DNA of 64,000 bases from Trypanosoma brucei (Eukaryota). The DNA is taken from positions 1,120,001-1,184,000 of the forward strand of contig CP000070.1 of NCBI GenBank assembly GCA_000002445.1, written 5' to 3'. Under the pieces are notes generated by a model that saw only the letters and a list, made by a program, of their open reading frames with translations, searched no databases and had not been told where the DNA came from. The position numbers were made by a program, and so were the translations under genes. Below are positions 1,171 through 19,871 of this stretch, one piece after another (positions within the stretch are counted from its first letter, which is position 1; every line of letters starts with the position of its first letter).

Positions 1171-1190
1171 GTGTGTGTGTGTGTGTGTGT
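1171..1190. repeat. (GT)10 microsatellite
   Basis: gtgtgtgtgtgtgtgtgtgt read directly. Confidence 0.9.
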
Positions 1191-1261
1191 CTGTTGTTGT
1201 TTCTACTTCTCTACCTTTGTGTACCCAGTTGTTGCTTTGGCGACGCAACGGGTGGCGGCAG

Positions 1262-1318
1262 TTATTTACGCACCCGTTTCTTTTTGTTTGTTTTTCATTT
1301 TTCTTTTCTTGCGTAAAT
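1262..1318 (+). promoter_or_regulatory. Polypyrimidine tract upstream of the WD40 gene, a candidate trans-splicing/polyadenylation signal
   Basis: T/C-rich run (ttatttacgcacccgtttctttttgtttgtttttcatttttcttttcttgcg) immediately 5' of the 1332 ATG. In kinetoplastids such tracts direct SL trans-splicing. Confidence 0.35.
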
Positions 1319-1331
1319 ATCTTGAAACTCA

Positions 1332-4300
1332 ATGAAGGTAGGATTCATGGTTGGGAAGACGTATCTTCGGTATGTTGTGGGCCCACAGGGTGGTGCTGTC
1401 GCGAGCAATGGTTCCCTTTCATGTTACAGCAGTATCACGCGTCCGTCGTATGCCAAATCAACGGGAGTGGCGAAGACAACTTACAGTGAACGCAATAACC
1501 GAAATCAGGGGAGGGATAAGTCCTCAACCGCGGCTTCTGCTGTGATTTTCACTGCAAGTCTGGAGGCTGTGCGGGTGTACTCTCTGCGCAGCGGTGTGCT
1601 TCAACATACGTTAATACCTAGGGAAGGAAAAATGCCGTTGGAAGTTACCGCCCTCCGTGTTGTACCACTGGATATGGTCGGAACATCAACAGCGTCGGCA
1701 ACGCCACTGAATACCCTCAATCAAATTGAGCAAGAAGGATGGATGCTGTTGGTCGGATACCACAACGGGCACGTGGCAGTTTTTTCGTGTGGTCCGACAT
1801 CGAATTACGGGGAACCAGTTTGCCGTTTCTACGCCCTCGGTCACAAGATAGATACATCAGTTCTATCCGTTGCCATAGACTCGCAGCGCGCTTGCCTTTG
1901 TAGCGGGGGACAAGATACCGATCTTACCGTGTGGGATGTTGTGACTCAAGAGCCCTCTTTTCGGTTGCGTGGGCATCGGGGAGGTATTGTCGGTGTGGAG
2001 TTCGTACCACAACGACGCCCAACAGGCCGTTTAGTAGTTGTCACGGGCTCATCGGATGGTCTGATTAAAGTGTGGGAACTATCCATACGTCAGTGCTTGC
2101 AGACAATTGTCGCATCGGATACACAAGTGTCGTCTATACTAATTGATGCTACCGGTAGTCGGCTGTACTGTGGCCTCCGCGAAAGTCAACTGAAGGTGTT
2201 CAATACGGAAGAGCTCACTGCATCAAGTGAAATGGACAAGGAATTGGGTGCCGTCACAGAGCACGGAGGTGTTCCGCGCAAACACCAGAAGCCAATAACT
2301 TCTTTTTCCTTTTCATATGACGGCAACTTTCTCTTGGCGTGCACAAGCAAAACTGTGGAAATCTTTCGTATTCTGTCCCGCGACGATGTGCGACGGAAGG
2401 TTGCGCGGAAACGTAAGCGTCGGGAGGCAAAGAATAGCGGTAATGCCCCATTGAACGATGTGGCAGAGGATGATGGAGACGAGCCCAACGCCCCGGGTGA
2501 TGAGGATAGAATTGAGGAGAAGTTGCCACCGACGAGAATAACCACTGATGGCAAAAGTGAGGCTAATGACGCGGGTAGCAAAAGCACGCATTCTGCCCAC
2601 GCTACAGCCATGGAAGAGATGGCCTTGTTACGCACTTTCTTTCTTGACGAGAAGGTGCGTAGTGCTTGTTTCGTTCCTCCTTTCCCAGGCATGAGCGGTG
2701 GCAGAGGTAGTGGTAGTCCTGGACAGCTCCACATCGCTGTAACGTTTAACAACAATACAGTGCGCACATTCACTACTGCGCTGACATGCGGCGACCCCCC
2801 AGCTGCTGCTATGTGGTCGCTCGAGAACCTTTCGATGCGCCATACGATGGATTACAGCGGACACCAGTCTGACATCCGCTCGTTGCAGTTTGTCGACGAC
2901 GACACGACGTTGCTTTCGTTAAGCTCTGAAAAGCTGATGATGTGGAACATCTCCACGAAAGACCCGGAAGAGGATCACAGAAACGAGCACGATTTCTATG
3001 ATGCCGTAGAGGCAAATGTGAAGCGGGGTGATAAAACAGGGTCGCTCACATGTACATCTCAGGTCGCGCTTGACGATGCCGTTGCTGTTGCAGCCATCGC
3101 CTCAAACCTGTGCTGTGTAGGGCGTAAAGATGGGTCCGTATTGTTGGTTGACCTTCCCGCGGCGGAAACAGTGTTCACAGACACTGCAGTGCATGTTGGT
3201 GGTGTGCGGCATGTTACTCCACTCCCCGATAAAAGTGGTTTCGTTTCTGTTGGTGCTGACCGTCGCATGATCGTTTGGACTCTTGCTATGGTGAAGGCTG
3301 GCTCCGATGCCGCCTCTTCTGGTTCTGGCTCTCAAGCAGCGTCTCACCGCCATAAAAACTCATCCCCCGATACTCCAGAACCAACCGATGAAAACGGGAA
3401 TGGAGAGACCGATACAAAGAATATGTCACTTCAGTTACTGCAAAGCGCACAACTCGAGTTAACGGAGAGTCCTTTGTTCGCTGTGTGTAGTGCCGACGGG
3501 CGGTTCCTCGCGGTTGGGTTACAAAACACAAACATTCAGCTGTTCTTTGCTGACACAATGAAGCCGTACCTTTCCCTCTACGGTCATAAACTTCCACCTA
3601 CCGCGGCAACGTTCAGCACTGACGGTACTCTCATTGCCTCTTGTGGCATGGACAAAGCTCTGCGACTGTGGGGGACGGACTTTGGTGATTGTCATCGTTC
3701 TATTCATGCTCACGATGACTACGTGACGGACGTTGCTTTTTTTCGGGATACTCACCAACTTTTAACTGTTTCACTTGACGGTACACTCAAACATTGGGAC
3801 GGTGATAACTGGATAATGATCCAAATGTTCCGTCAGCACCAACGGGGTGTGTGGGCGGTTGCGGCGACGGCAAATAGCACATGTGTTGCGACAGCGGGAG
3901 TTGACAAATGCATTCGCTGTTTCTTACGCACCTCTGACATTGTCTTCCCAGCGGAGGAAGAAGAACGGTTAGCTCAGGAGGCGATGGATGAGGAGGCAGC
4001 AAAGCGAGCAGCGATGCAGAGTTTAAATGGCATCCAACACCAGCAGGAAGTGGGTGTGGCGGGTCATGCGACTACGGCAACTGCCGCTGCCGCGGAAAAG
4101 ATAATGGAAGCGCTCGATTTGGTGTCAGTGGAGCTACAACGACGGAAGAACGACTCGGATAGTGCTCCCCCAAACCCGCTTCTGGTGAACAAAACCGTCT
4201 GGGAATATCTCTGGTCCATCATAGAAAGTGTGCGACCCAGTGACTTGCGTCACGCGCTGTCCAACCTCACGAGCACACATGTTGATGCCTTGCTGGACTA

Positions 4301-4664
4301 CGTCGAGCAGATGCTGAAGGAACGGGCCGTGCTTAACTATGAGACCGCTGCGAGAATTCTGCTCGCTTTGGTTGGCACACCGGCTTCGGTGGCAACAACT
4401 CACATCGCTCGCGTAGCCGTTGCAGGTGAAGTGTCCGAGGCGCGTGGGGCACGCCGTCTAGCCGCCCTCCGCCGAATGATTGCTGAAGGCCTCGATCAAT
4501 CAGCAACGCGCATGGACTATAACGTTTCCGGCTTGCAGTTTGTTCGTAAGATACTCGAAGACAGCGAGAAGGCTCGCTTCTTCGACGTGAGCAAAGTCCA
4601 GGGGTACAAACAAAGGTATCACAGTCGTGTCCTCCATGAAGAGCAAAGAGGAGAGAAGCATTAA
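1332..4664 (+). CDS. WD40-repeat SSU-processome (U3 snoRNP) protein with a C-terminal Utp12-type domain, UTP12/WDR3-like
   Basis: 1110-aa ORF with several WD40-like segments (LTVWDV, GSSDGLIKVWEL, LRLWGTD, DGTLKHWD). The C-terminal block LLVNKTVWEYLWSII...LLDYVEQMLKE resembles the Utp12 domain. Internal acidic/KR-rich linker. Confidence 0.55.
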   Translation: MKVGFMVGKTYLRYVVGPQGGAVASNGSLSCYSSITRPSYAKSTGVAKTTYSERNNRNQGRDKSSTAASAVIFTASLEAVRVYSLRSGVLQHTLIPREGKMPLEVTALRVVPLDMVGTSTASATPLNTLNQIEQEGWMLLVGYHNGHVAVFSCGPTSNYGEPVCRFYALGHKIDTSVLSVAIDSQRACLCSGGQDTDLTVWDVVTQEPSFRLRGHRGGIVGVEFVPQRRPTGRLVVVTGSSDGLIKVWELSIRQCLQTIVASDTQVSSILIDATGSRLYCGLRESQLKVFNTEELTASSEMDKELGAVTEHGGVPRKHQKPITSFSFSYDGNFLLACTSKTVEIFRILSRDDVRRKVARKRKRREAKNSGNAPLNDVAEDDGDEPNAPGDEDRIEEKLPPTRITTDGKSEANDAGSKSTHSAHATAMEEMALLRTFFLDEKVRSACFVPPFPGMSGGRGSGSPGQLHIAVTFNNNTVRTFTTALTCGDPPAAAMWSLENLSMRHTMDYSGHQSDIRSLQFVDDDTTLLSLSSEKLMMWNISTKDPEEDHRNEHDFYDAVEANVKRGDKTGSLTCTSQVALDDAVAVAAIASNLCCVGRKDGSVLLVDLPAAETVFTDTAVHVGGVRHVTPLPDKSGFVSVGADRRMIVWTLAMVKAGSDAASSGSGSQAASHRHKNSSPDTPEPTDENGNGETDTKNMSLQLLQSAQLELTESPLFAVCSADGRFLAVGLQNTNIQLFFADTMKPYLSLYGHKLPPTAATFSTDGTLIASCGMDKALRLWGTDFGDCHRSIHAHDDYVTDVAFFRDTHQLLTVSLDGTLKHWDGDNWIMIQMFRQHQRGVWAVAATANSTCVATAGVDKCIRCFLRTSDIVFPAEEEERLAQEAMDEEAAKRAAMQSLNGIQHQQEVGVAGHATTATAAAAEKIMEALDLVSVELQRRKNDSDSAPPNPLLVNKTVWEYLWSIIESVRPSDLRHALSNLTSTHVDALLDYVEQMLKERAVLNYETAARILLALVGTPASVATTHIARVAVAGEVSEARGARRLAALRRMIAEGLDQSATRMDYNVSGLQFVRKILEDSEKARFFDVSKVQGYKQRYHSRVLHEEQRGEKH

Positions 4665-5117
4665 CCCAACCGCTGGGGAGAAGAGCAATAATGAAGGTAA
4701 CACATCCCAGCAATGTATCGCTGGTAATAAATCAGTCATGTGGTGGCTTTGCATCTTAATTAAAGTTCTACCTTGTGACAAAGGGCTGCAGCCTATGCTA
4801 GGAAGTAAAATGGAGCGTTAATTTTATTCGGTGGGGAGTATTATTGTAAAGGTCCCTCAATAAACGTGTAAGACGTAACCCAAAGTAGGGGCTTAAGGAA
4901 GGATGGAAGGGCACTAGAGCATGTGTCCAGTCGCAGGTGCACACGCATAAGCCCCAATGTTCCTCTCCTTGTATTCCCGTGTTCCGCCTACACGCGAACA
5001 CCCGTACAAACTCAAGAGCACAAATCACTGCATCATTGTTTCTCTTCACTCTTCCCATAATTTTTCAATGTTTGCACAGACCCCATAGCAAGTAAGTGGA
5101 GAAAAAGGTAACACACA

Positions 5118-5858
5118 GTGAGTAAGAAAAGCAGCAACGACGAGAAACAAAAGTTTGGCGTAATGGTGATGAAGGCTTTCCCCCTTTCCCTGTTAGCGGC
5201 AACCACTGTGTTATTACTGCTGCTTCCTGTTCCTGGTAGGTGTGCTGATTGCTTTGCTCATTCAAATGATTACTCCACTCCCGGGGAGCCGTTCGGCAAA
5301 TCGAAGCACACAATCACCTTAAGTGGTGGGAACTGGGGCACTGTCATAGGCAGTGACGGAAATGCACTAAAGACGGCCCTTCTACTTGACATTTACGCTC
5401 AAATACTGCGACGGCATGCTTTTAACACTTCCGTCACCGTCGACGATATGCGACAGGGAGAGCATGGCATGGAAGCTGAAGTAACCGTTACACAGGTTTT
5501 GTTGACTGATGTCCCTAGGGCCGACTTGCAGCATACATGGAATCCCAACGAAATAACATCGTTGTTAATGCAAGGGGTGTACAAACACACAAAAGATAAA
5601 CACGATCCGCATTCAGACGTCCATCTCGTTAGTGTCAGACTCCCCGCTGCGACTACAGAGCTCCACAAGTGTGGGAAGGCCTGTTGGACTGTTCGGTTAA
5701 TAGGCATCTTTATAGGGATAGCCATGATTCTCATTGCAGCATACACTATATTCATAACGCGTAAATGGGAAAAGCAAGCGGAAAAAGAACCGGATGACGA
5801 CTCTTCGCGGGAACCATTGCCAGAACAAGAACAGAGGAGGTCGAGAACACGCGTGTAG
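5118..5858 (+). CDS. Small type-I membrane protein, family member A (signal peptide, ~150-aa ectodomain, one TM, charged tail)
   Basis: ORF with hydrophobic leader MVMKAFPLSLLAATTVLLLLLPVPG (functional start probably ~5163). Conserved motifs SKHTITLSG, TALLLDIYAQILRRHAF, VTVTQV, QHTWNPNEITSLLMQGVYKHT, CGKAC. TM segment LIGIFIGIAMILIAAYTIFI followed by K/E/D-rich tail. Confidence 0.7.
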   Translation: MSKKSSNDEKQKFGVMVMKAFPLSLLAATTVLLLLLPVPGRCADCFAHSNDYSTPGEPFGKSKHTITLSGGNWGTVIGSDGNALKTALLLDIYAQILRRHAFNTSVTVDDMRQGEHGMEAEVTVTQVLLTDVPRADLQHTWNPNEITSLLMQGVYKHTKDKHDPHSDVHLVSVRLPAATTELHKCGKACWTVRLIGIFIGIAMILIAAYTIFITRKWEKQAEKEPDDDSSREPLPEQEQRRSRTRV

Positions 5859-6787
5859 CATCGTTTCATTAGCAGCGGCGACAACAATCCGAAGTAATGC
5901 GCGGTTAGTTGCGGACAACATTCCACTGCGTCTCTTTGATATACTTTTTTTTGCTTTTGCTTTTCGCTGCATATACCAGCACCCCACTCCACGTGTGGTG
6001 AGGAGCTTGGGGTGGCATTCTTTGTTTGAACGCCTCCCATCCCCTTTTATGTTATTTTATGTTTTTTTTCCCCCTCTTGCTCGTTTATTCCCGCCCACCT
6101 TGTTGCTTTGACTGCCCTATGTACGACTGATAAATATGCATTGGACAACACATGGCTACTATTCAGTGTCTAAATACATCTTGCACACGCGGTCTTCCTG
6201 TTACTGCATGCACGGAAACTACTTTGAGCCCCCCCTTCCTTTCCCTCCCTACTTTTTCATCTTTCATATTATACCACATACATTTTGTGTATTACTCATT
6301 TTACCGTTAGCACCACCTTGCAAAGTTGTTAGCGTAATATGGGAATGTGTGTATTATATACTTCCCAATTGAATCCATATTCGGGAAGTTTTCTGTCTCC
6401 TCACTCGCCTCGTTGAAATCCTGTTAGTTGTCTCGGTATCAATGATAATATTGATGTGTGTTGAATGGTGGTTTATGGATGTGACTGTATTTTGTTGCGT
6501 ATGAACCACTGGAATGATTAAAAGGTCCTTTTAGCACTGCGGGGTTATGAATATTAATAGCCTGCACTCGTGTCAATGTATCTGGTAGTATTTTCACACC
6601 CCACCCACGTGCAACTTTTTACCTTTGCTCTGAGTTATTCTACTCCACACACCCATCGTTGCAACATTATTGGAAGTTAAGTGCTTTAGTAGTCATTAAT
6701 TTTGTAACGACTCTAATTAACGCGGTTCCGGTCGACAAAATTAAGCACTGCTGACACCCACTTCTTTATTTCCCCCACCTGGAAACA

Positions 6788-7126
6788 ATGACTCGGCAAT
6801 CCGATGTGCAAAAATCCATGAGGACAATTTCTGATGGAGCGGAAAAGGCAGTAGAAGTACGGAAATATGACGAGAAAGCGGTGCAGCAGCGGATGCAGAA
6901 ACTTTATGCCGATGTGGCGAAAAAGAAATTAGCTGAGAAGAAGCGAGCTGATGAGTTGGCGCAGATCCCGGTGTCGGAGGAGGATGTGCAACTTTTGGTG
7001 CGTGAATGCGGTTGGGAGGCGCAGGTGGCACAACAGAAACTCCGTGAGAGGAATGGAAGCGTTGTGGCGGTTCTTCGAGATGTTGCGGGACTCCCGAAGG
7101 CCAAAGCATCGAGTGGAACCTCCTGA
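6788..7126 (+). CDS. HYPK-like protein (Huntingtin-interacting protein K / NatA-associated, UBA-like C-terminus), copy 1
   Basis: 112 aa. The C-terminus VSEEDVQLLVRECGWEAQVAQQKLRERNGSVVAVLRDV parallels the HYPK UBA-like region (KKEDLELIMTEMEISRAAAERSLREHMGNVVEALIAL). The upstream charged helix KYDEKAVQQRMQKLYADVAKKKLAEKKRADEL parallels the HYPK central helix. Start codon uncertain because no AG sits between the polyY tract and the first ATG. Confidence 0.55.
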   Translation: MTRQSDVQKSMRTISDGAEKAVEVRKYDEKAVQQRMQKLYADVAKKKLAEKKRADELAQIPVSEEDVQLLVRECGWEAQVAQQKLRERNGSVVAVLRDVAGLPKAKASSGTS

Positions 7127-8339
7127 AACCTGACAAACAAAAAAAAACATTTACAATATAATGGTTATGACTGATTGAATGAGAGCAGCAGCGAGAGAAA
7201 CGGAAGTTGGCGGGGCCCTTTTGGTTGACTTGTTACGAGATGCTCAGAGGTGTGGAGCGTAAGCATGTGTGTAATCCCACTGAAGACAATTGCATGGTGA
7301 TGCAGGGGATGTTTGAGTTCATACAAATCTCAAACAAACACTGTAGAGGCGTTGAACTCATTAATGTCAAACTCCATCTGATTATTTCAGGCACGAATGC
7401 CCTCATGTAGGATGAAAAGGATTGCCACTTCCTTCATGTCGCAACGGATTCGCTATCAATTGCAACAGCTCCGACCTACAGCTTGTTGTGAGTTTTTAAC
7501 GCGCTTGGACTTCGGTAATGAACTTGGAACTTGATTTCCTGAGGATCGCCGCGGTGCATAATTTGTTCCTTCCCCATTTGATGTGAGCAGTGCGGTGCAC
7601 TTAACCATTGTGGTATCACTGCTTCGCTTTCTATGAGTGTGTGCTGTACAAATCTAATTCCTCTTCCACTATTTACCGTATTTGAAGCTCATTAAAGGAA
7701 CCATAATTAGCAAAGGGGGCACACTCAGTTGTCAAGGCAGTGGAACCCACAACATCCGCGCACAGCGGTGACACAAATGCATAATAGCTGCTTTTCATAC
7801 ACCTCTATTGTGGGGATGTTGATTCTCAAAGCGTAGTGGTTGTAATTTGAAATCAGGCATGGAGCGTCTGGGTAGGCGCATCGAGGCCAATCGCTTTATT
7901 ATGGGACAGTTGGATGGTATGCGAGGGTGCACGCCTGCTGTTGGTTGCAGCGGCAGCCTCAAAAAATTAAGTTATGCAACACTCGGTGTATTGCGCCGGG
8001 AGAATATGCGGCGGTGCGGGTGAGCCCTTTCACTGCACTTTGGGCAGCGGGGGTTGGGATGGTATCTACAGGGGATCTACTTCACATTGGAAAGTAAACG
8101 TCACAACTGCTGTCTCGACTGGTCGCTGATAGAACCCGTGAGGTGGAGAGAGAGACTGCTAGACCGGAGTTCCCTTCCAGGACGGATTAGCATCGGCAAA
8201 CCGAGAGGCACAAGCACGCCCTCGTTGTTGAATTACTGATCGGCATTCTGTTGGAGGTATGAAGGAATCGCAGTGGCGGCGGTGTTGATTAAAGTTTGAG
8301 AAACCTCGAGGAAAGGGAAAACCTCGTGTCGCAAAAGTC

Positions 8340-9515
8340 ACTATTTCCCGGGAGTCACACCGGCTATAGAGGCTGAAATTGAATACTTGAGAAAACAGTT
8401 GGGCGACTGTAAAGAACAACTTATAAAATACAGAGCACACTTTGAGCAGGTTAACCACGTTATTAAGAATAGACGAATTAAAGGAAATGGTTCAGCAGCA
8501 AGCTCAGACATTGGAAAAGCTCGAAAAATATTATCAAGAACAAAACGCCCAAAAGGTCCCGTGGCCGCTGATCCTCGGAAACGATGTCTGTAAACCCCCA
8601 ACCTTCCTCCATAGACCGTCAACAGAGCACTCAGATGTACCAACATGTTTCCACTACTCCGCTCGGCTTTAGTATAAACTGGGTCGGATGGAAAAACAGA
8701 GCGGAAACCTCTGAAGGACTTTTACAATTGTATGACGAATGTGGGACTACAATTGGGAATCCTGAGAGGCCTTCATGGTACAATTCTGTAAATTAATGGG
8801 GGGGAAGTGAATCATCTCTACATTTTTGGACGTTCACAAGATGGGTACGGTATTATGACCACTTCGTGGCTACGGCGAATAGAATGCCAATACAATATAT
8901 AACAACAGGGGCAGCTATGTATAAAACATGGCGAATGGAAATGGCAGCACAGAAAAGAGGAGTATTTATCCCACGGGCAATACAAGAAGGATTGGATACT
9001 GAAGGAGGTATCAATGTATGATAAGATGGCAAACGCAGCTGCAAAACAAAGAGCTCAGAGAAGTCGCCAAGGACGGAATTGAAGCAATTTCAACAACCAT
9101 CAGCGTCGAACAAGCCCAAACGGGCGAAGGAAGTCCCCATCGCGGAAACAGTAGCAAAGGCGAGACTGAGCGGGGCTCGTAAAATATACCGCTCCCGACA
9201 TAAGAGAATGAAACAAAAGGCGAAGAAAGAATGGTCAAAACTACAAATCCACAAGAACAGTGAATATGTTCGAAAACACATGGGAAACAAGAAAATTCTA
9301 TGGGGGTGTTGCGATCCGCGCGCGGATATACGCAACAAAGAGATACGGGGATGCACAAATAAAATAGTAGCTCCGGCACCACCTAACCCAGTGACTGTCC
9401 CCCGCGCGCAGATTAGGCCCTGTTCGTCAGGGAACTCTGAGCGAGAGCACTGTCCGGACCTTAAAATGCCCATTCAAGCACCGGAAGTCAAGCCGATGCT
9501 ATGGCGTAAACTATT
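8340..9515 (+). mobile_element. Partial inverted copy of a degenerate retroelement 5' region (gag-like, frameshifted) inside the left arm
   Basis: Mirror of 10482-11657. Coiled-coil ORF fragments in three frames (LRKQLGDCKEQLIKYRAHFEQVNHV / LRIDELKEMVQQQAQTLEKLEKYYQEQNAQK) are followed by a very basic ORF (MKQFQQPSASNKPKRAKEV...RSRHKRMKQKAKKEW...). The frame changes imply decay. Confidence 0.4.
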
Positions 9516-11657
9516 AGGCTGGCATTAACACGCTTGCACGCATTGTTGAAAAAAACTGAACTTCCTCATTATTTCTTGGAACCAGTCTAGCGGCTCAGTT
9601 GCTAATACTTTTGCCGTAGCCACCAGGCTTCCAAATAATTTTTCAAGGTCTCGCAGGTCGATTAATTTCAAATATTCTTGTGTCGTCATCTGAATAAATT
9701 GTCTAGCCACATTATTTTCAATTTATTCAGATGTTTTTCTGTTACTTGTACACTTTTATTATTGTGGTCCAAGACCGCTCCTATGGAATCATAACTGGTG
9801 GCGTAAGGCAGCGGTTCGGATAATGTCACGCAGTATTTCTCCACCTTGCCGTGGAGGAGGCTAATTATTTTTGGCGCTTGTTTTTCCGTAATTGCTAGTC
9901 TGAAATTATCGATCCAGACATCACCGTCTATCATCCGGTGCTCTCAACGCGTTACCTGCGAGTGCCCCGTTAATGTCATTACCAACCACTGCATAATTTC
10001 GCAGCTTGTTGTTAATCCCATGGGCAATTGTGTCATTTCCAAAGGCGAACCATCTGCAGTTGCAATGGAGAAGCATGCGGTGGTGTTTACCGGCAGGTCA
10101 ATTTCATAGTAACTTGCTTTTAAATCACCCACTATTGCTCCAGCAGCGGAGAGTATGTCCAGGTACTCCTGGAACGGGTTTAATTCCACTATACAGCGAT
10201 AATCACACACATTATCTAAATAGTCATTCGTCGTGTTTGGCCATACCAATAGTCTCCTCCTGTTTTTCCAGGGTTCATCGACTGTAGATGCACGGGCGAC
10301 TGGGGGATCCACTGTCGATTTCGTGATATTCGCGCTGAGTACGGTCTTGGCATCACTGGATGATAGCCACTAACGCGCTGGGACGTCGCCTATTTCGTCC
10401 CGTCTTACGTATTGCGCGGCATCGGCTAATTGCCGGAGCAGCACTTGAATTCTTTCTTGCACCTTATTTTTTGTCGAACGCAATAGTTTACGCCATAGCA
10501 TCGGCTTGACTTCCGGTGCTTGAATGGGCATTTTAAGGTCCGGACAGTGCTCTCGCTCAGAGTTCCCTGACGAACAGGGCCTAATCTGCGCGCGGGGGAC
10601 AGTCACTGGGTTAGGTGGTGCCGGAGCTACTATTTTATTTGTGCATCCCCGTATCTCTTTGTTGCGTATATCCGCGCGCGGATCGCAACACCCCCATAGA
10701 ATTTTCTTGTTTCCCATGTGTTTTCGAACATATTCACTGTTCTTGTGGATTTGTAGTTTTGACCATTCTTTCTTCGCCTTTTGTTTCATTCTCTTATGTC
10801 GGGAGCGGTATATTTTACGAGCCCCGCTCAGTCTCGCCTTTGCTACTGTTTCCGCGATGGGGACTTCCTTCGCCCGTTTGGGCTTGTTCGACGCTGATGG
10901 TTGTTGAAATTGCTTCAATTCCGTCCTTGGCGACTTCTCTGAGCTCTTTGTTTTGCAGCTGCGTTTGCCATCTTATCATACATTGATACCTCCTTCAGTA
11001 TCCAATCCTTCTTGTATTGCCCGTGGGATAAATACTCCTCTTTTCTGTGCTGCCATTTCCATTCGCCATGTTTTATACATAGCTGCCCCTGTTGTTATAT
11101 ATTGTATTGGCATTCTATTCGCCGTAGCCACGAAGTGGTCATAATACCGTACCCATCTTGTGAACGTCCAAAAATGTAGAGATGATTCACTTCCCCCCCA
11201 TTAATTTACAGAATTGTACCATGAAGGCCTCTCAGGATTCCCAATTGTAGTCCCACATTCGTCATACAATTGTAAAAGTCCTTCAGAGGTTTCCGCTCTG
11301 TTTTTCCATCCGACCCAGTTTATACTAAAGCCGAGCGGAGTAGTGGAAACATGTTGGTACATCTGAGTGCTCTGTTGACGGTCTATGGAGGAAGGTTGGG
11401 GGTTTACAGACATCGTTTCCGAGGATCAGCGGCCACGGGACCTTTTGGGCGTTTTGTTCTTGATAATATTTTTCGAGCTTTTCCAATGTCTGAGCTTGCT
11501 GCTGAACCATTTCCTTTAATTCGTCTATTCTTAATAACGTGGTTAACCTGCTCAAAGTGTGCTCTGTATTTTATAAGTTGTTCTTTACAGTCGCCCAACT
11601 GTTTTCTCAAGTATTCAATTTCAGCCTCTATAGCCGGTGTGACTCCCGGGAAATAGT
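9516..11657 (-). mobile_element. Degenerate retroelement (gag-like plus Ty3/gypsy/DIRS-type reverse-transcriptase remnants), spanning right arm and unique centre
   Basis: Minus-strand order is coiled-coil gag-like ORFs (11610->11201), then the basic protein (10918->10370), then RT motifs in the unique centre. The RT motifs are GDLKASYYEIDL (cf. DLKSGYHQI), TACFSIATADGSPLEMTQLPMGLTTSCEIMQWL (cf. KTAF.T..G.YEF.VMPFGLTNAPATFQRLM), VWIDNFRLAI (cf. VYLDDILIFS), then FGSLVATAKVLATEPLDWFQE (cf. the post-RT F..LK.AL.SAPVL..PDF block). Multiple stops and frameshifts mean it is non-functional. Confidence 0.5.
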
Positions 11658-14117
11658 GACTTTTGCGACACGAGGTTTTCCCTTTCCTCGAGGTTTCTCA
11701 AACTTTAATCAACACCGCCGCCACTGCGATTCCTTCATACCTCCAACAGAATGCCGATCAGTAATTCAACAACGAGGGCGTGCTTGTGCCTCTCGGTTTG
11801 CCGATGCTAATCCGTCCTGGAAGGGAACTCCGGTCTAGCAGTCTCTCTCTCCACCTCACGGGTTCTATCAGCGACCAGTCGAGACAGCAGTTGTGACGTT
11901 TACTTTCCAATGTGAAGTAGATCCCCTGTAGATACCATCCCAACCCCCGCTGCCCAAAGTGCAGTGAAAGGGCTCACCCGCACCGCCGCATATTCTCCCG
12001 GCGCAATACACCGAGTGTTGCATAACTTAATTTTTTGAGGCTGCCGCTGCAACCAACAGCAGGCGTGCACCCTCGCATACCATCCAACTGTCCCATAATA
12101 AAGCGATTGGCCTCGATGCGCCTACCCAGACGCTCCATGCCTGATTTCAAATTACAACCACTACGCTTTGAGAATCAACATCCCCACAATAGAGGTGTAT
12201 GAAAAGCAGCTATTATGCATTTGTGTCACCGCTGTGCGCGGATGTTGTGGGTTCCACTGCCTTGACAACTGAGTGTGCCCCCTTTGCTAATTATGGTTCC
12301 TTTAATGAGCTTCAAATACGGTAAATAGTGGAAGAGGAATTAGATTTGTACAGCACACACTCATAGAAAGCGAAGCAGTGATACCACAATGGTTAAGTGC
12401 ACCGCACTGCTCACATCAAATGGGGAAGGAACAAATTATGCACCGCGGCGATCCTCAGGAAATCAAGTTCCAAGTTCATTACCGAAGTCCAAGCGCGTTA
12501 AAAACTCACAACAAGCTGTAGGTCGGAGCTGTTGCAATTGATAGCGAATCCGTTGCGACATGAAGGAAGTGGCAATCCTTTTCATCCTACATGAGGGCAT
12601 TCGTGCCTGAAATAATCAGATGGAGTTTGACATTAATGAGTTCAACGCCTCTACAGTGTTTGTTTGAGATTTGTATGAACTCAAACATCCCCTGCATCAC
12701 CATGCAATTGTCTTCAGTGGGATTACACACATGCTTACGCTCCACACCTCTGAGCATCTCGTAACAAGTCAACCAAAAGGGCCCCGCCAACTTCCGTTTC
12801 TCTCGCTGCTGCTCTCATTCAATCAGTCATAACCATTATATTGTAAATGTTTTTTTTTGTTTGTCAGGTTTCAGGAGGTTCCACTCGATGCTTTGGCCTT
12901 CGGGAGTCCCGCAACATCTCGAAGAACCGCCACAACGCTTCCATTCCTCTCACGGAGTTTCTGTTGTGCCACCTGCGCCTCCCAACCGCATTCACGCACC
13001 AAAAGTTGCACATCCTCCTCCGACACCGGGATCTGCGCCAACTCATCAGCTCGCTTCTTCTCAGCTAATTTCTTTTTCGCCACATCGGCATAAAGTTTCT
13101 GCATCCGCTGCTGCACCGCTTTCTCGTCATATTTCCGTACTTCTACTGCCTTTTCCGCTCCATCAGAAATTGTCCTCATGGATTTTTGCACATCGGATTG
13201 CCGAGTCATTGTTTCCAGGTGGGGGAAATAAAGAAGTGGGTGTCAGCAGTGCTTAATTTTGTCGACCGGAACCGCGTTAATTAGAGTCGTTACAAAATTA
13301 ATGACTACTAAAGCACTTAACTTCCAATAATGTTGCAACGATGGGTGTGTGGAGTAGAATAACTCAGAGCAAAGGTAAAAAGTTGCACGTGGGTGGGGTG
13401 TGAAAATACTACCAGATACATTGACACGAGTGCAGGCTATTAATATTCATAACCCCGCAGTGCTAAAAGGACCTTTTAATCATTCCAGTGGTTCATACGC
13501 AACAAAATACAGTCACATCCATAAACCACCATTCAACACACATCAATATTATCATTGATACCGAGACAACTAACAGGATTTCAACGAGGCGAGTGAGGAG
13601 ACAGAAAACTTCCCGAATATGGATTCAATTGGGAAGTATATAATACACACATTCCCATATTACGCTAACAACTTTGCAAGGTGGTGCTAACGGTAAAATG
13701 AGTAATACACAAAATGTATGTGGTATAATATGAAAGATGAAAAAGTAGGGAGGGAAAGGAAGGGGGGGCTCAAAGTAGTTTCCGTGCATGCAGTAACAGG
13801 AAGACCGCGTGTGCAAGATGTATTTAGACACTGAATAGTAGCCATGTGTTGTCCAATGCATATTTATCAGTCGTACATAGGGCAGTCAAAGCAACAAGGT
13901 GGGCGGGAATAAACGAGCAAGAGGGGGAAAAAAAACATAAAATAACATAAAAGGGGATGGGAGGCGTTCAAACAAAGAATGCCACCCCAAGCTCCTCACC
14001 ACACGTGGAGTGGGGTGCTGGTATATGCAGCGAAAAGCAAAAGCAAAAAAAAGTATATCAAAGAGACGCAGTGGAATGTTGTCCACAACTAACCGCGCAT
14101 TACTTCGGATTGTTGTC
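10482..14117 (-). repeat. Right arm of the large inverted repeat
   Basis: See left arm. Only one mismatch was found (5922 C vs complement of 14075), giving LVADNI vs LVVDNI in mirrored ORFs. Confidence 0.9.
12871..13209 (-). CDS. HYPK-like protein, copy 2 (identical mirror copy in the right arm)
   Basis: 112-aa translation identical to 6788..7126. Confidence 0.55.
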   Translation of the reverse strand: MTRQSDVQKSMRTISDGAEKAVEVRKYDEKAVQQRMQKLYADVAKKKLAEKKRADELAQIPVSEEDVQLLVRECGWEAQVAQQKLRERNGSVVAVLRDVAGLPKAKASSGTS

Positions 14118-14975: not shown

Positions 14976-15899
14976 TAATTCGAGTACGGTTGAAGAAAGA
15001 AAGAAAGGGGGGAGTGAAGGGAATCATGTTGGACAGAATCCACAACAAAAATTATAATTAACCGAATGGATCAACTTCATTGTCCAAACAGTCTCTGTTG
15101 TACTGCTGTTGTCGTCACCGTTCATTTGTGGTGAGGGAAGGAATTGTGTGTGCCGATTTATCCTTCCTGTTTTCTCTTAATAACGAGACAATAAAATAAG
15201 TGACCGTTAATATCTTTTATTTTCTTTTCTTCCCCCGGTACTCGAACCGCAAGGCGGGGGAGTCACATATAACGAGAGATCAAAGATACAAATAAATAAT
15301 ATAAAACAGCAGAAGGGCACACACACACATACATATATATATATATACATGTATGAGGGAACGAAATTAAGATAGTTTTTAACAAGGAGGAAGAAATAAA
15401 GCACTGAAAACTAAAAGAAACTCGACGCAACGGCTCTCAATATTCGCCGTACTTTACTCTCAGGGATCGCAGAGGTGTATTTTTTTTTCTTTCCTTGTCC
15501 CATTTCTTTTGGCACCTCCCGCGGCCTGCTCGTGGAAGAATGCACATAATTACGATAACTTACGTTCATGTCATATAAAATAATAATAATAGACAACAAC
15601 GACGCGGTGGCGATGATTGTTTTGATTAAATAACCTGAAGGGGGAAAAAAAAAAGAAACCTCAGTGGAGGAATATTCACAGATGGATGTTTTTTTCATTA
15701 TTATTTTGTTTTTGTTTCTGCGGGTGACAGCCTTTCCTTTAATTTTATTTGTTGGTTATGTACCGCTCATGTCCTACGTTGAGTGGTGGAAGAAGCACAA
15801 AAACAAGACTACAGCACAACTGAGTGAACAAATAAACTAACAACAAAAGTAATCGGATTGAAGCAGTGACGAATAAAACTTTTTTCACTACATATGCCT

Positions 15900-16613
15900 T
15901 TATTTGTTTGTTTCCTCAGTCCTATAGTGGTCTTGATTGTAAGGATGATTGGCATTGCTCTCATCTTTTTCTTTTGGTTCCCCACGGCAACAGTTGACGA
16001 TTAGGTAAATGATCAAAATAAGTAAAGAAACCCCCATTAAAATAATAACTACCATCGCCAGCTTTAATAGTCGCCTGCATGTGTCATCGCACTCACCAAA
16101 ATGCAGTTTTCCATCATGCACCTTCACGGAGATGAGTTCCGGTCTCTTCACACCTTCGTACAAACTTAGCGTTTTACTATAATCCGTCTGCGTAATAAGT
16201 GAATTCACCTCCGCAGGCGGCCAAATGTGTTGCCTCTCAGGATTTGAAACTTGTGCCCTGACGGTTTGTACAACAACTATGAGTATTTCGATAAAGTTGT
16301 GTGTGGGGTCGAATGAGGTAATTAAAACCTCCGTCAGAAAACTTCCATTCCGTTGCACGTAACGATCGATGTCGCTCACAAGTATTTCCCTCAGTTGTTC
16401 CTCTTTCTGCTGGACAGTTGCCGCCCAATTGTCGCCATCAAATTTCACGGTATGTTTTGATGTTGAGGACTGCTGGATGTCGTCAGCACACCTACCAGGA
16501 ACAGGAAGCAGCAGTAATAACACAGTGGTTGCCGCTAACAGGGAAAGGTGGAAAGCCTTCATCACCATTACGCCAAACTTTTGTTTCTCGTCGTTGCTGC
16601 TTTTCTTACTCAC
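15900..16613 (-). CDS. Small type-I membrane protein, family member C
   Basis: N-terminal 44 aa (MSKKSSNDEKQKFGVMVMKAF[H/P]LSLLAATTVLLLLLPVPGRCAD) nearly identical to member A. Divergent ectodomain with a QHIWPPAEVNSLITQTDYSKT motif, CDDTC pair, TM MVVIILMGVSLLILIIYLIV and a charged tail. Confidence 0.65.
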   Translation of the reverse strand: MSKKSSNDEKQKFGVMVMKAFHLSLLAATTVLLLLLPVPGRCADDIQQSSTSKHTVKFDGDNWAATVQQKEEQLREILVSDIDRYVQRNGSFLTEVLITSFDPTHNFIEILIVVVQTVRAQVSNPERQHIWPPAEVNSLITQTDYSKTLSLYEGVKRPELISVKVHDGKLHFGECDDTCRRLLKLAMVVIILMGVSLLILIIYLIVNCCRGEPKEKDESNANHPYNQDHYRTEETNK

Positions 16614-16785
16614 TGTGTGTTACCTTTTTCTCCACTTACTTGCTATGGGGTCTGTGCAAACATTGAAAAATTATGGGAAGAGTGAAGAGAAACAATGGTG
16701 CAGTGATTTGTGCTCTTGAGTTTGTACGGGTGTGCGCGTGTATTAAGTCAAGAAATGAGTGAGATAACAATGACCAATAAACAGG
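16497..16785 (-). promoter_or_regulatory. Conserved 5' flank/5' UTR block of the membrane-protein family (copy upstream of member C)
   Basis: About 285 bp nearly identical to 18108-18384 (upstream of member D). Its proximal ~180 bp is also found, reverse-complemented, at 5035-5215 (upstream of member A). It covers the presumed splice-acceptor region, 5' UTR and signal-peptide codons. Confidence 0.55.
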
Positions 16786-17538
16786 AGTCAGAAAGAGTAT
16801 TTGTACAAAGAAAAATTAGTGAACGATGCGGGAGAGCAACAACACAAGCTCAATAACAATAACGGAAAAAAGCAATGAAGACGACAGTCGCTTTGCCTAC
16901 TTGTCATCACAAATGTTAATTTCCTGCTGATGGGCAATAACCCAATGCCTACCCTCGGTAATTTGGTGAGATTCAGAGAAAAAAAGCAAAGGAATGTGGG
17001 AATTTCTTCGATCGAATGGAAACCCCTCAAAAAGGAGGAAAAAGTAAACATACGTAAAAATAACTCCCCCTCCTTCTGTCACACGAATATACAAGAATAT
17101 ATGTATTTTTACGCACACGTGAATTAAATGTTGCGCGCAACAAGAAATAAAACACAAGAGAACTTACATTGCCATTTTTTGTTTTAGTATCATCTGTTTA
17201 AGACAAATATCAACCGGTGAAGCACAAAGAGTTGTTGAAACAGAGATAAATAGATAAATTCAATAGTGTATATGAAGCACGGAGTGATGACAGTCGAAAA
17301 TACGAAGGAACGGGATGCGCATAACACAGAAGAGTGAATACGGTGCAATGACAAATCAAAAGAAAAAATACAACTCACTCGATATCATGAGACTTCTACA
17401 ATCAGAAAGCATTTGCTATTAGCGTGGAAAAAGAATGAAGAAGCAATAAAATATGTATAACAATGGCACGTACCTATAGCCACAGCTAGTATTGGGGGCA
17501 TCGAACCTGATGGGGCTAGTCCGCCGTTTTCGGTCACT

Positions 17539-18219
17539 TTAATCCCTTTCTTCAAGTTTCGGACGCCGGAAATGCGAATAAATCCAAATGTACGCCGTCA
17601 CACTAACTATTATGGTCATAGCAGCGAGAGACACGGCCACCACACCTCTAAGAATTTGACAGCTCGTGCCACATAATGGCGGACCCGGGGGAACCAAAGG
17701 AAGTCTGACGGTAATGAGTTCAACATCCCCATGGGGTTTGTACGTGCTTTTTGTGTGTTCAAATTTTCCCTGCATTATCATAGAGTTGGCCTCACTGGGA
17801 TTCCACACATGCTGCAACTCAGGCGTGGGGTCATCAGCCAATGCAACTTGTGTAACGGTCACTTCAACTTCCATTTCCCCCTCTCTCACTTTCATATTGT
17901 TGATGGTAACGGTGGTGTTGACGGCGTACTCCCGTTGCGTTTGCAAGTAAATGTCGAGCAAAAGTGACTTCCTCAACTTCGCTTCATCACTTATGACAAT
18001 TTCGTCCCATTTCGTGCCTTTAAAGGTGATTATGTGCTTCGATTTGCCGAACTCCGTTGGTTGCAAGTACAACATCGTACCATTGAGGCAGTCAGAGTGT
18101 GCGGGAACAGGAAGCAGCAGTAATAACACAGTGGTTGCCGCTAACAGGGAAAGGGGGAAAGCCTTCATCACCATTACGCCAAACTTTTGTTTCTCGTCGT
18201 TGCTGCTTTTCTTACTCAC
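17539..18219 (-). CDS. Small type-I membrane protein, family member D
   Basis: Same leader (MSKKSSNDEKQKFGVMVMKAFPLSLLAATTVLLLLLPVP). Motifs SKHIITFKGTKW, SLLLDIYLQ, VEVTVTQV, QHVWNPSEANSMIMQGKFEHT, CGTSC. TM VVAVSLAAMTIIVSVTAYIWI and a short basic tail. Confidence 0.65.
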   Translation of the reverse strand: MSKKSSNDEKQKFGVMVMKAFPLSLLAATTVLLLLLPVPAHSDCLNGTMLYLQPTEFGKSKHIITFKGTKWDEIVISDEAKLRKSLLLDIYLQTQREYAVNTTVTINNMKVREGEMEVEVTVTQVALADDPTPELQHVWNPSEANSMIMQGKFEHTKSTYKPHGDVELITVRLPLVPPGPPLCGTSCQILRGVVAVSLAAMTIIVSVTAYIWIYSHFRRPKLEERD

Positions 18220-19871
18220 TGTGTGTTACCTTTTTCTCCACTTACTTGCTATGGGGTCTGTGCAAACATTGAAAAATTATGGGAAGAGTGAAGAGAAACA
18301 ATGGTGCAGTGATTTGTGCTCTTGAGTTTGTACGGGTGTGCGCGTGTATTAAGTCAAGAAATGAGTGAGATAACAATGACCAATAACGCTACTTGATGAT
18401 GGAAACAAAAAGGGTACACGCATAAGAAGTCTACCACCATTCCATGGTGTGATTATTGCAAACTCGAAGGTAGTGTCGATTAACCACCCAGACGAGCCAT
18501 CTCCAGTTGTCGTTACTGTTGTTAATAGACCGAAAACAAGCCCTAGTAAGCGGTTAATTACTGGAGGAAGGATTTGCTCCTCTTTATTGGTGCTGCATAC
18601 TAACTTGTTATCATTGTTCCTTCAGCACTGCTGTTCAGTACGATAGGAGGAGGGGATTTGAATATATATATATATATATAAACAACTTTGCAGAACCAAA
18701 ATGCATCACTGAATTCCAACGAAGCGTTAAGACGAAAAATGATAACCCCCTCTCAGCATTGTCGACGCCAAGTTTATCGTTTTAAATACAAACATGCACG
18801 GAAATACGTATGATGCGTGCCCATAAACCCGTTGGATCAAATATTCACGCGGCGGCACTCTGTAAAATATAAAATGCCCGTCATGCGGCACGACGGAACG
18901 AGCGGGTCAACTTGTGGTTTCTACCCTTTTGTATCTTCAGGGCGCAATGGTGCTTCCACAACGCACCGAAGCTACTCAATGTCGGTTCACTATCGTGTGG
19001 CAACTTCATGACTAGGCCATTTCGATTTTGAAGTTATACTTCACTACTTAGTCGCCCCACGCTCCATTTCATTTGGAAGTACCGTATCTAACGCGGTGCC
19101 AAGGCTTGTTTTTGCTCCTTTGGCAGAACAAAAACATTCAGTAGCAAACGGTTGGCAGTAAAGTTTGAGATGGGCCGACTAAGAACTCAGAGCCGTTGGC
19201 GCGGATGTCCCCACGGGTTGGTTTAGTATGCCCAAGTGACGTGCTCAGTGAGTTCTTCAGCTGAGTCCTTACGTATTGTGTGAAGGCCGTAGTTAAGCGG
19301 CAGCATTCGTGGGGCCAGATTATTTGACCAAATAGCTGCGACAAGTGAAGGAATACCTTCAGCAGCCTAGTTCTTGTCCATAGTTCCCCTAGAGATAGCT
19401 CTTATGAAGGAGAAAAAGTGAAGGCAACCCATTGGATGTTAGAAGTGAAGCGACGCGAAAGGGGGAAACAGTAAATCTTGCGGATGAAGAAATGCAAACG
19501 TATATCTCATGAGAGTTTGGCTCGAAAGGGAGGCGTTTTGTCAAAAGCGTACGAATGGAAAGGGAAAGAAGGGACAAGTGGCATTTGCGTACTCCCTTTA
19601 AAGTTAGGAACCACAGTTGCACGTCTTCCCGGATGCTCATCCATCCACCTCTTCGCACTGTCACCAGGGCCCCCCTGCCGATTGGGACATGGCTCTCATA
19701 TCAAATAACGCTTTCAAAAGCCTTAACAATTAATAGTCATAAATAATAATAATAATATTGATAGTAGTCGGCACGATGCTGTGCCATGAACGAAGACCGA
19801 CATCCATTCAGTCACAACGCAGTTTCACGCCGTGGAGAACTGCAACGCTGGATTCAGCTTTTTCCTGGTGA

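Follow-up and report, generated by a model that had tools for sequence, protein, structure and literature searches.

Large, near-identical palindromes on the human sex chromosomes are maintained by gene conversion between their arms. Long inverted repeats also serve as sources of small RNA: the hpRNA loci of animals and plants (e.g., the Drosophila loci cited in PMC3447711) consist of a long inverted repeat whose transcript can fold to dsRNA, and this dsRNA is diced into Argonaute-bound siRNAs. In Trypanosoma brucei siRNAs are made at ordinary convergent units, which lie where two RNA polymerase II polycistrons meet and bear the marks H3.V, H4.V and base J; these siRNAs are DCL2-dependent and increase upon loss of H3.V. 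A further source is the chromosome 7 inverted repeat Tb927_07_IR3 (IR3), reported by Tschudi, Shi, Franklin and Ullu (BMC Genomics 2012, PMC3447711). According to that paper, IR3 is the most productive inverted-repeat source of AGO1-bound 22–25-nt siRNAs in procyclic cells, with 372,045 AGO1-bound small-RNA reads against 33,373 for the best ordinary convergent unit.

The stretch of T. brucei DNA analysed here (the window, 64,000 nt) contains an 8.2-kb palindrome. Its parts, delimited by repeat search and base-by-base comparison, are as follows:

5880..9515, no strand: left palindrome arm, 3,636 nt, the reverse complement of 10482–14117 with a mismatch at 5912
9516..10481, no strand: unique 966-nt centre (loop), delimited by base-by-base comparison and by colinear alignments with other assemblies
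10482..14117, no strand: right palindrome arm, 3,636 nt, whose outer 18 nt are the last five codons and stop of ESP13

The symmetry axis lies at 9998.5. Comparison of the window with itself showed the arms to be reverse-complementary over their full 3,636 nt with only one mismatch, a C/T difference at 5912/14085; the sequence-only reading had described both arms and their single mismatch correctly but had put the latter at 5922/14075, which is wrong by 10 positions. Inter-arm identity ends sharply, at the outer and the inner arm ends alike, and a perfect 3.6-kb inverted repeat cannot have originated by chance. The remaining inverted repeats in the 64-kb window are only gene-family modules of 245–260 nt, and no tandem or internal repeats of note were found inside an arm.

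We identify this palindrome as Tb927_07_IR3, a real structure known since 2012. In PMC3447711, the Table 3 entry for Tb927_07_IR3 gives 1125000/1134900, 3,636 bp and 1 mismatch, and the arm length and mismatch number measured here equal these values. The window covers the corresponding location on TREU927 chromosome 7 (~1.125–1.135 Mb), and all six proteins tested from it are exact matches to T. b. brucei TREU927 proteins (AAZ12487–AAZ12493). Both 25-mer oligonucleotides used for IR3 Northern blots in that paper match with 0 mismatches, once per arm and in opposite orientations, where no match is expected by chance. Thus chromosome, arm length, mismatch number and probe oligonucleotides all point to the same object, and we found no difference from the IR3 described in that paper. 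The guess at Trypanosoma made from the letters alone was correct as well. The oligonucleotides bound a non-coding stretch in the inner part of each arm, and the stretch in the left arm is presumably a zone of abundant siRNAs:

8233..8593, no strand: non-coding inner-arm stretch between exact IR3 Northern oligonucleotide matches (8233–8257 and 8569–8593)
11404..11764, no strand: its right-arm mirror, likewise bounded by exact oligonucleotide matches (11404–11428 and 11740–11764)

Taken as a whole, the reading that we favour, with a probability of roughly 85%, is that the palindrome is the published IR3 at a convergent region, that its siRNAs come from read-through dsRNA, that its arms are gene-converted and that it arose by an inverted duplication in the T. 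brucei lineage. As the palindrome has been documented since 2012, it opens no new question by its existence. The available portion of PMC3447711 gives no account of the arm gene content, the retroelement relic in the loop, concerted evolution between strains or the state of the locus in other trypanosomes; the arm gene content, the loop relic, the between-strain comparison and the comparison with other trypanosomes presented below are additions to the IR3 publication.

The palindrome had initially been taken as new and as a possible mis-assembly, and publication in 2012 together with PCR verification of IR3 in strain YTat 1.1 (PMC3447711) speaks against both. One might suspect that the assembly was folded back or mirrored, or that a repeat was collapsed and just one arm is real, since chimeric long reads and repeat mis-joining classically yield near-perfect palindromes, and short-read contigs (three Logan contigs and the T. 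equiperdum OVI contig) do break at or near the arm boundaries. Such breaks, as at 5883, are what a true repeat with two contexts gives in short-read graphs. Moreover, the left and right flanks are unique and different, each running into its own conserved gene order, and the centre is unique as well. The same palindrome is present in two further chromosome-level assemblies, T. b. gambiense DAL972 (orthologous locus on chromosome 7, 1.18–1.20 Mb) and T. b. equiperdum, and the OVI contig holds arm and centre in the same configuration. The orientation of the centre is identical in all four T. brucei-group assemblies, and in the three besides this window the alignments are colinear through it. Given this recurrence with the same spacer orientation in independent assemblies from three subspecies, and the PCR product from a fourth strain, the artefact reading is effectively refuted.

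The palindrome lies where two polycistrons converge, and the genes that define this setting are:

5163..5858, + strand: ESP12 in the left flank, the last unique gene of the + polycistron, outside the arms; exact match to AAZ12487
6788..7126, + strand: HYPK-type UBA-domain gene, copy 1, 112 aa (Pfam PF19026, E=2e-11, above the curated cutoff)
12871..13209, − strand: HYPK-type UBA-domain gene, copy 2, identical to copy 1 by arm identity
14100..14891, − strand: ESP13, the right-flank paralogue; exact match to AAZ12490

WDR3 and ESP12 are encoded on the + strand and all large ORFs between 14100 and 63867 on the − strand, so that + strand genes run up to HYPK (ending at 7126) and − strand genes from the second HYPK (12871) to the window end. 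In terms of gene order, a polycistron ending WDR3-ESP12-HYPK meets one ending NudC-(two ESP-like genes)-ESP13-HYPK, which is the two-polycistron convergence of trypanosomatid strand-switch regions; other species retain the order of the flanking genes. The strands of the flanking ORFs therefore bear out the proposal that the palindrome occupies a convergent strand-switch region, and the two HYPK copies (6788–7126 on +, 12871–13209 on −) are each oriented for their own polycistron, as had been predicted. A tRNA scan found no tRNA genes, and no Rfam family matched, anywhere in the 64-kb window; RNA polymerase III genes (tRNA or other), which are present at some such regions, were thus not found at this junction. 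Enrichment of H3.V, H4.V and base J is stated in general for siRNA loci, including inverted repeats, in PMC4721609.

The genes next to the arms, annotated as 'Enriched in surface-labeled proteome protein 12' (AAZ12487) and 'Enriched in surface-labeled proteome protein 13' (AAZ12490), encode products localised to the flagellar pocket/endosomes and the whole cell surface (PMC4587319). The left arm begins 21 nt past the ESP12 stop codon (5856–5858), and the outer end of the right arm (14117) is 18 nt within the ESP13 coding sequence, so that the last five codons and stop of ESP13 (14100–14117) are inside the arm. With 43% protein identity, ESP12 and ESP13 are indeed diverged inverted paralogues of one membrane-protein family, as first proposed. 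The further suggestion that they mark an older and larger inverted duplication is plausible but not proven: ESP12 is nearer to the third gene across the junction (49%) than to ESP13, and in the outer flanks the ESP12/ESP13 homology extends through the transmembrane region while the last 60–100 nt beside the arms do not align. As the global alignment score of the outer flanks (23) is just above that of the best shuffle (21) and these adjoining nucleotides remain unaligned, a larger old inverted duplication with the palindrome as its homogenised core is only plausible.

Each arm holds a single intact gene, HYPK; the rest is non-coding DNA and one pseudogene relic, and Pfam assigned no credible family to seven small ORFs from the arm's inner half. 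The HYPK sequence bears two accessions (AAZ12488 and AAZ12489), its orthologues in other Trypanosoma species are 60–71% identical, and it is single-copy in T. cruzi and T. melophagium. The relics are:

7255..7392, + strand: ESP-like family pseudogene relic directly downstream of HYPK, recognised by tblastn, nucleotide identity and position
12605..12742, − strand: its right-arm mirror, placed by reflecting the coordinates (19997 minus x); the two arms show no difference in this part

The relic matches the paralogue at 17539–18174 with 48% identity over 46 aa (tblastn, E=5e-9) and shows 72% nucleotide identity to 17702–17813. Its position fits the order of HYPK followed by a family member seen in T. 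vivax and T. cruzi.

The centre contains the decayed remains of a retroelement:

9686..10312, − strand: VIPER-like (tyrosine-recombinase-type) reverse-transcriptase (RT) fragment, interrupted by stops, recognised by HMMER and tblastn

In translation the relic occupies a single reading frame, with stops, from roughly 9530 to 10400. An exhaustive HMMER search with a 122-aa ORF from the centre gave 155 matches at E<=1e-3, several of the top ones carrying RVT_1 and RNase H-like domains, and tblastn linked the centre (E=2e-14) to a T. cruzi element with gag, recombinase-like, RT and RNase H parts. Pfam, a PDB sequence search and a word-indexed protein search returned no usable match for the pseudo-protein of the centre. 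The loop pseudo-ORF is 32–37% identical to the RT of the T. cruzi element, and the two have in common the unusual VWIDN box within the motif VWIDN(F/I)R. In contrast to VIPER, which was compared here through this T. cruzi element, the loop keeps only ~0.8 kb of RT with stops and has no recombinase, RNase H or terminal repeats. VIPER itself is reported to be degenerate in T. brucei (PMC6681497).

A VIPER-like relic in the centre brings up the idea that the entire structure is one DIRS/VIPER-type retroelement with the arms as its inverted terminal repeats, as DIRS-order elements can have inverted terminal repeats (PMC6681497). The arms, however, hold a conserved host gene, HYPK, and a host ESP-like relic in the same order as in other trypanosomes. 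When T. cruzi gag, recombinase and RNase H and T. vivax non-LTR ORFs were compared by tblastn with arm and centre, the only significant similarities were RT in the centre and the ESP-family relic, and the arms showed no similarity to any of recombinase, gag and RNase H. At roughly 0.3 kb the terminal repeats of DIRS-1 are also far shorter than 3.6 kb. We found neither the host-gene-free arms nor the internal gag, tyrosine recombinase and RT/RNase H of such an element, only the RT fragment, and regard the single-element reading as extremely improbable.

Comparison between strains indicated how the arms have stayed alike. About 40 alignment columns split TREU927 and OVI from DAL972 and T. b. equiperdum on both arms (pattern 0011110), and 0 columns separate left from right arms across genomes. 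Within a genome the two arms differ at 1, 2 or 12 positions, while 40–49 differences separate the two groups; in the T. b. equiperdum assembly the 12 differences between arms slightly exceed the 9 between its left arm and that of DAL972. These arm identities should be read with the caveat that Sanger or short-read assemblies could pool the reads of the two arms and thereby inflate them. Arms are thus more alike within a genome than between orthologues, and we found no fixed differences specific to one arm; columns shared by strain group together with the absence of left/right columns form the pattern expected from arm-to-arm gene conversion. The sequence-only reading had allowed for re-homogenised arms, and the between-strain comparison supports this. 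The near-identity would accordingly be maintained by gene conversion between the arms without flipping of the spacer, to judge from these comparisons.

In this respect IR3 resembles the human sex-chromosome palindromes: its arms are of kb scale and >99.9% identical, flank a unique spacer, carry genes and are more alike within a genome. It is, on the other hand, ~10 to 1000 times smaller, with one small gene per arm, and resides in a diploid protist with polycistronic transcription, where its documented output is siRNA.

As for the origin of the structure, T. vivax, T. cruzi and T. melophagium have HYPK and the ESP membrane-protein family on a single strand; the palindrome is therefore derived in the T. 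brucei lineage. It probably arose there by inverted duplication of a segment consisting of an ESP-family gene, HYPK, a second ESP-family gene (now the relic) and downstream DNA, at a site that would have adjoined an old VIPER-like retroelement insertion. In T. vivax an unrelated near-perfect, VIPER-bearing palindrome is located at the end of the NudC polycistron.

The evidence for siRNAs from IR3 in PMC3447711 comprises AGO1 pull-down sequencing, Northern blots and dcl1 and dcl2 knockouts. Compared with the wild type, dcl1-/- cells keep 73% and dcl2-/- cells 41% of the IR3 small RNAs, and so both Dicers contribute. Ordinary convergent units in dcl2-/- cells mostly retain <5% of wild type, with 16 to 53% at the highest; by the 41% that it retains, IR3 behaves unlike a plain convergent region. 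According to the same paper small RNAs come also from the IR3 loop, and siRNAs are confined to restricted parts of the arms, which is not as a simple full-length hairpin predicts. Deletion of H3.V increases the small RNAs of inverted repeats, with IR3 shown in S2 Fig of PMC4721609.

Of the two classes of siRNA source described above, IR3 shares with hpRNA loci the long inverted repeat, the transcript that can fold to dsRNA and the dicing of that dsRNA into Argonaute-bound siRNAs. It departs from them in its far longer arms (3.6 kb), each with an intact protein-coding gene, in its siting where two polycistrons meet and in the lack of a promoter of its own; a single-molecule hairpin is here putative. 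With ordinary T. brucei convergent units it has in common the junction of two RNA polymerase II polycistrons, the siRNAs and their rise on H3.V loss. Unlike these units, it yields at least 11 times the reads of any unit listed in PMC3447711, and the overlap is encoded in the DNA as a palindrome.

The most likely route to these siRNAs is read-through transcription, which gives long hairpin or double-stranded RNA that is cut by Dicer. RNA polymerase II arriving from either side would be incompletely stopped before the centre, and arm, loop and arm would therefore be transcribed. The resulting RNA could fold on itself and form a hairpin whose stem would reach up to 3.6 kb, and pairing may also occur between convergent transcripts that overlap. 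Nuclear DCL2 and cytoplasmic DCL1 would then dice the dsRNA. The loop small RNAs (PMC3447711) argue for transcription of both strands, and together with the partial dependence on each Dicer they are compatible with, without proving, a single transcript over both arms.

Roles in transcription termination, replication-fork stability or amplification of the surface-protein genes had been proposed for the palindrome from the letters alone. These are unsupported, and the activity documented for IR3 is siRNA production. We consider it unlikely that the palindrome has a mainly structural role in which it, or a cruciform or R-loop at this site, blocks RNA polymerase II or replication where the polycistrons converge. 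Its exact siting where the two polycistrons meet would fit such a role; a 966-nt spacer should, however, strongly disfavour cruciform extrusion. The enrichment of H3.V at siRNA loci including inverted repeats, and the rise in small RNAs when H3.V is lost (PMC4721609), could likewise be taken in its favour. Against it, the abundant small RNAs, which have both polarities and arise from the loop too, show transcription entering and crossing the structure and not stopping there (PMC3447711), and the other convergent regions in that paper are listed as ordinary convergent units, not as inverted repeats.

A possibility to be taken seriously, though we would not put it at even odds, is neutrality: the palindrome would be no more than the by-product of an inverted duplication at a strand-switch region, homogenised by gene conversion, with siRNAs as an unavoidable side-effect that has no selected role. 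The intact arm gene is of housekeeping type and single-copy elsewhere, the remainder of each arm is relic and non-coding, and the T. vivax palindrome, being unrelated, suggests that such structures form readily at sites of this kind; moreover, no target or phenotype is reported for its siRNAs. What weighs against neutrality is that boundaries and spacer orientation are the same across T. brucei subspecies despite ~1.2% divergence, and that the very high identity suggests selective pressure according to Tschudi et al. (PMC3447711). Neither subspecies conservation nor high identity settles the matter, since arms can stay identical through gene conversion alone.

It is also improbable, in our estimation, that IR3 is a selected hairpin-RNA 'gene', one that formed where two polycistrons meet, with an ancient VIPER-like insertion at its core, whose arms gene conversion keeps identical and which produces regulatory siRNAs. 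If it were, the siRNAs would tune the dosage of HYPK or, via the ESP-like relic in the arms, the ESP-family paralogues; alternatively, those from the loop would police VIPER-type retroelements. On this reading the independent T. vivax palindrome would suggest that salivarian trypanosomes have built small-RNA loci in this manner more than once. Under any of these readings, IR3 is among the clearest natural cases in protists of a kb-scale palindrome that survives in the genome and feeds RNAi, and HYPK and the surface-protein pseudogene relic in the arms, the retroelement relic in the loop, gene conversion and the derived origin offer handles on its retention and on the role of its siRNAs. At two other convergent units, mRNA was unchanged in dcl2-/- cells (PMC3447711).

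A repeat search of the window recovered inverted-repeat arms of 3,636 nt each at 5880-9515 and 10482-14117, exactly where the sequence-only reading had placed them, with 966 nt in between. Base-by-base comparison showed that arm identity stops sharply at the outer and inner ends alike, and that the arms differ at a single site, a C/T mismatch at 5912/14085, ten bases off the 5922/14075 first proposed. On the left, WDR3 (1332-4664) and a membrane protein (5118-5858) are encoded on the + strand, and from 14100 to the window end all large ORFs lie on the - strand. The palindrome is thus located on a convergent strand switch, and the ORF strands on both sides bear out the same claim made from sequence alone. 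The tRNA and Rfam scans gave no tRNA genes and no Rfam family matches anywhere in the window.

Large inverted repeats of the TREU927 genome were surveyed by Tschudi, Shi, Franklin and Ullu (BMC Genomics 2012; PMC3447711), whose list of seven includes Tb927_07_IR3 (IR3) on chromosome 7 (1125000/1134900), with a 3,636-bp repeat of '99% (1)' identity, i.e., one mismatch, confirmed by PCR in strain YTat 1.1. Because both IR3 Northern oligos published there match the window with 0 mismatches (one at 8233-8257/11740-11764, the other at 8569-8593/11404-11428), the identity of the palindrome with IR3 is settled. It is confirmed as a real and already known structure. Relative to what that survey reports, our additions are incremental: the anatomy of arms and loop, concerted evolution across subspecies, the derived origin and a possible T. 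vivax parallel.

The genes of the arms and flanks, whose proteins were assigned to T. brucei brucei TREU927 by exact-sequence look-up, are as follows.

5163-5858, + strand, left flank: ESP12, exact sequence match to AAZ12487
6788-7126, + strand: HYPK copy 1 (UBA-domain gene), intact, 112 aa, Pfam PF19026, E=2e-11
7255-7392, directly downstream of HYPK, one per arm: relic of the ESP-like membrane-protein family, 48% identity over 46 aa to the paralogue at 17539-18174, E=5e-9
12871-13209, - strand: HYPK copy 2, intact, 112 aa, Pfam PF19026, E=2e-11
Right flank, - strand: ESP13, exact sequence match to AAZ12490

Each arm carries one HYPK (accessions AAZ12488 and AAZ12489), and past ESP13 the right side continues with two more paralogues and then NudC. 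Both flanking proteins carry the name 'enriched in surface-labeled proteome'; in tagged form, ESP12 is found at the flagellar pocket and endosomes and ESP13 over the whole cell surface (PMC4587319). The relic shows 72% nucleotide identity to its paralogue, and its position after HYPK repeats the order of HYPK and family member in T. vivax and T. cruzi. The left arm opens with 18 nt that repeat the last five codons and stop of ESP13, now downstream of the ESP12 stop codon. No credible coding potential and no internal repeats were found in the inner ~2 kb of each arm, the part in which the published IR3 probes fall.

The same palindrome is present on chromosome 7 of T. b. gambiense DAL972 and in the chromosome-level T. 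b. equiperdum assembly, both alignments being colinear with the window through the centre, and a T. equiperdum OVI contig holds right flank, arm and centre in matching configuration. An assembly artefact was rejected, as the two flanks are distinct sequences, each running into its own conserved gene order. Three Logan short-read contigs (ERR7929161, ERR7929157, ERR7929159) each span 5883 to ~7131-7146. Their start at the outer arm boundary fits a repeat boundary, since short-read contigs break where the sequence outside a repeat differs between its two copies; their end lies 5-20 nt past the HYPK stop codon. To the right of the DAL972 palindrome (FN554970.1, locus positions 319-9110), the block of ESP13, 222-aa and 211-aa genes occurs twice in a locus with a 100-N gap, which indicates either copy-number variation or assembly uncertainty in the surface-protein array beside IR3.

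Translation of the centre revealed one - strand reading frame interrupted by a few stop codons. An exhaustive search with its 122-aa ORF gave 155 protein matches at E<=1e-3, with RVT_1 and RNase H-like domains in several of the top ones. By tblastn this ORF matched a T. cruzi element in the RT ORF (E=2e-14), and it shares an unusual VWIDN box with that element. As this element, with its gag-like, recombinase-like, RT and RNase H ORFs, has the architecture described for VIPER, which is reported as degenerate in T. brucei (PMC6681497), the centre is here termed a VIPER-like RT relic. In the arms, tblastn detected nothing else belonging to such an element. A lysine-rich ORF leaves each arm into the unique centre (9079-9528, +; 10370-10918, -), giving two versions of 149 and 182 aa with different C-termini. 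It has no family match, the - strand version shares the reading frame of the RT relic, and DAL972 has an annotated 104-aa gene at the site; the ORF could be a spurious call or belong to the retroelement relic. In two T. cruzi strains, too, VIPER-like elements follow this membrane-protein array (L011 15326-15604; L012 ~15300-19200), at differing positions and orientations. Insertion of retroelements at this polycistron's end seems to be recurrent.

In T. vivax, WDR3, family member, HYPK, family member, HYPK and family member follow one another on one strand, a direct tandem duplication, and in T. cruzi and T. melophagium a lone HYPK precedes a run of three to five family members, again all on one strand. 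NudC is the last gene of a different polycistron in T. vivax, T. theileri and T. cruzi. Because these outgroups keep HYPK and the family on one strand, the T. brucei palindrome is derived; the simplest account is an inverted duplication, in the T. brucei lineage, of family gene, HYPK, family gene and downstream DNA. An older, larger duplication had also been proposed. The flanking ESP12 and ESP13 are indeed diverged paralogues (43% identical), but ESP12 is nearer (49%) to a third gene on the opposite side, and the 60-100 nt bordering the arms do not align between left and right flank, so that a diverged outer part of the same duplication is plausible only. At one T. vivax locus (L009), the HYPK and family member tandem (8128-13036; unit ~2.3 kb, 100% identity) is followed on the same strand by a non-LTR retroelement with endonuclease and RVT_1 ORFs (15006-17573). 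About 4.4 kb downstream of NudC, T. vivax has a near-perfect palindrome of its own (GCA_021307395.1, SOPI01000326.1, L014 15295-20906), with arms at 15439-17777 and 18423-20761 that are 100% complementary around a 645-nt spacer and run on at 96% identity to the locus end. Both arms contain RT and RNase H-like sequence of the VIPER-like kind, homologous to the relic in the T. brucei centre.

We aligned both arms from TREU927, DAL972 and equiperdum with the single OVI copy. Forty columns split TREU927 and OVI from DAL972 and equiperdum in both arms simultaneously, and in none do the left arms of all genomes part from the right ones. Mismatches number 1, 2 and 12 between the arms of one genome vs. 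40-49 between the two groups, a pattern expected of arm-to-arm gene conversion, with the caveat that assemblers can pool reads of both arms. A second caveat is that in the equiperdum assembly the 12 arm-to-arm mismatches slightly exceed the 9 between its left arm and DAL972. Spacer orientation is alike in all four assemblies, a small sample, which fits conversion without crossover.

According to the 2012 survey (PMC3447711), IR3 gives the most AGO1-bound small-RNA reads of the inverted repeats (372,045; Northern-validated), at least 11 times any listed convergent unit (best, 33,373). The siRNAs arise from limited stretches of the arms and from the loop between them, and both Dicers contribute: 73% of the wild-type level remains without DCL1 and 41% without DCL2, whereas ordinary convergent units in dcl2-/- mostly fall below 5%, the highest retaining 16 to 53%. 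A later paper reports higher small-RNA levels at inverted repeats once histone H3.V is deleted, and shows IR3 in its S2 Fig (PMC4721609). In the most likely mechanism, RNA polymerase II leaving either polycistron would be incompletely stopped before the centre and would copy arm, loop and arm; this RNA would fold back as one long hairpin, or the convergent transcripts would pair, and the double-stranded RNA would be diced. Since the unique loop yields small RNAs, both strands are transcribed there, and the hairpin and convergent-pairing routes therefore probably coexist. The read excess and the 41% left in dcl2-/- distinguish IR3 from ordinary convergent regions, and both fit fold-back RNA also reaching the cytoplasmic Dicer. 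A serious rival is that the palindrome is tolerated, as a neutral product of duplication and gene conversion; IR3 has no known target or phenotype. The roles first suggested in termination, replication-fork stability and gene amplification drew no support from any test made here.

Elsewhere in the window, a module made up of the 5′ region and the signal-peptide codons is near-identical (99-100% over 245-283 nt) in ESP12 and two ESP-like genes across the palindrome (4989-5248, 16483-16780, 18104-18386), with gene bodies of just 32-49% protein identity behind it; the module is missing from ESP13. The pattern suggests a further homogenised segment that works across the strand switch. A 1,405-aa - strand ORF of unknown function (35995-40212) contains a tandem array (37463-39130) of at least nine copies of a 171-nt (57-aa) unit, 98-99% identical.
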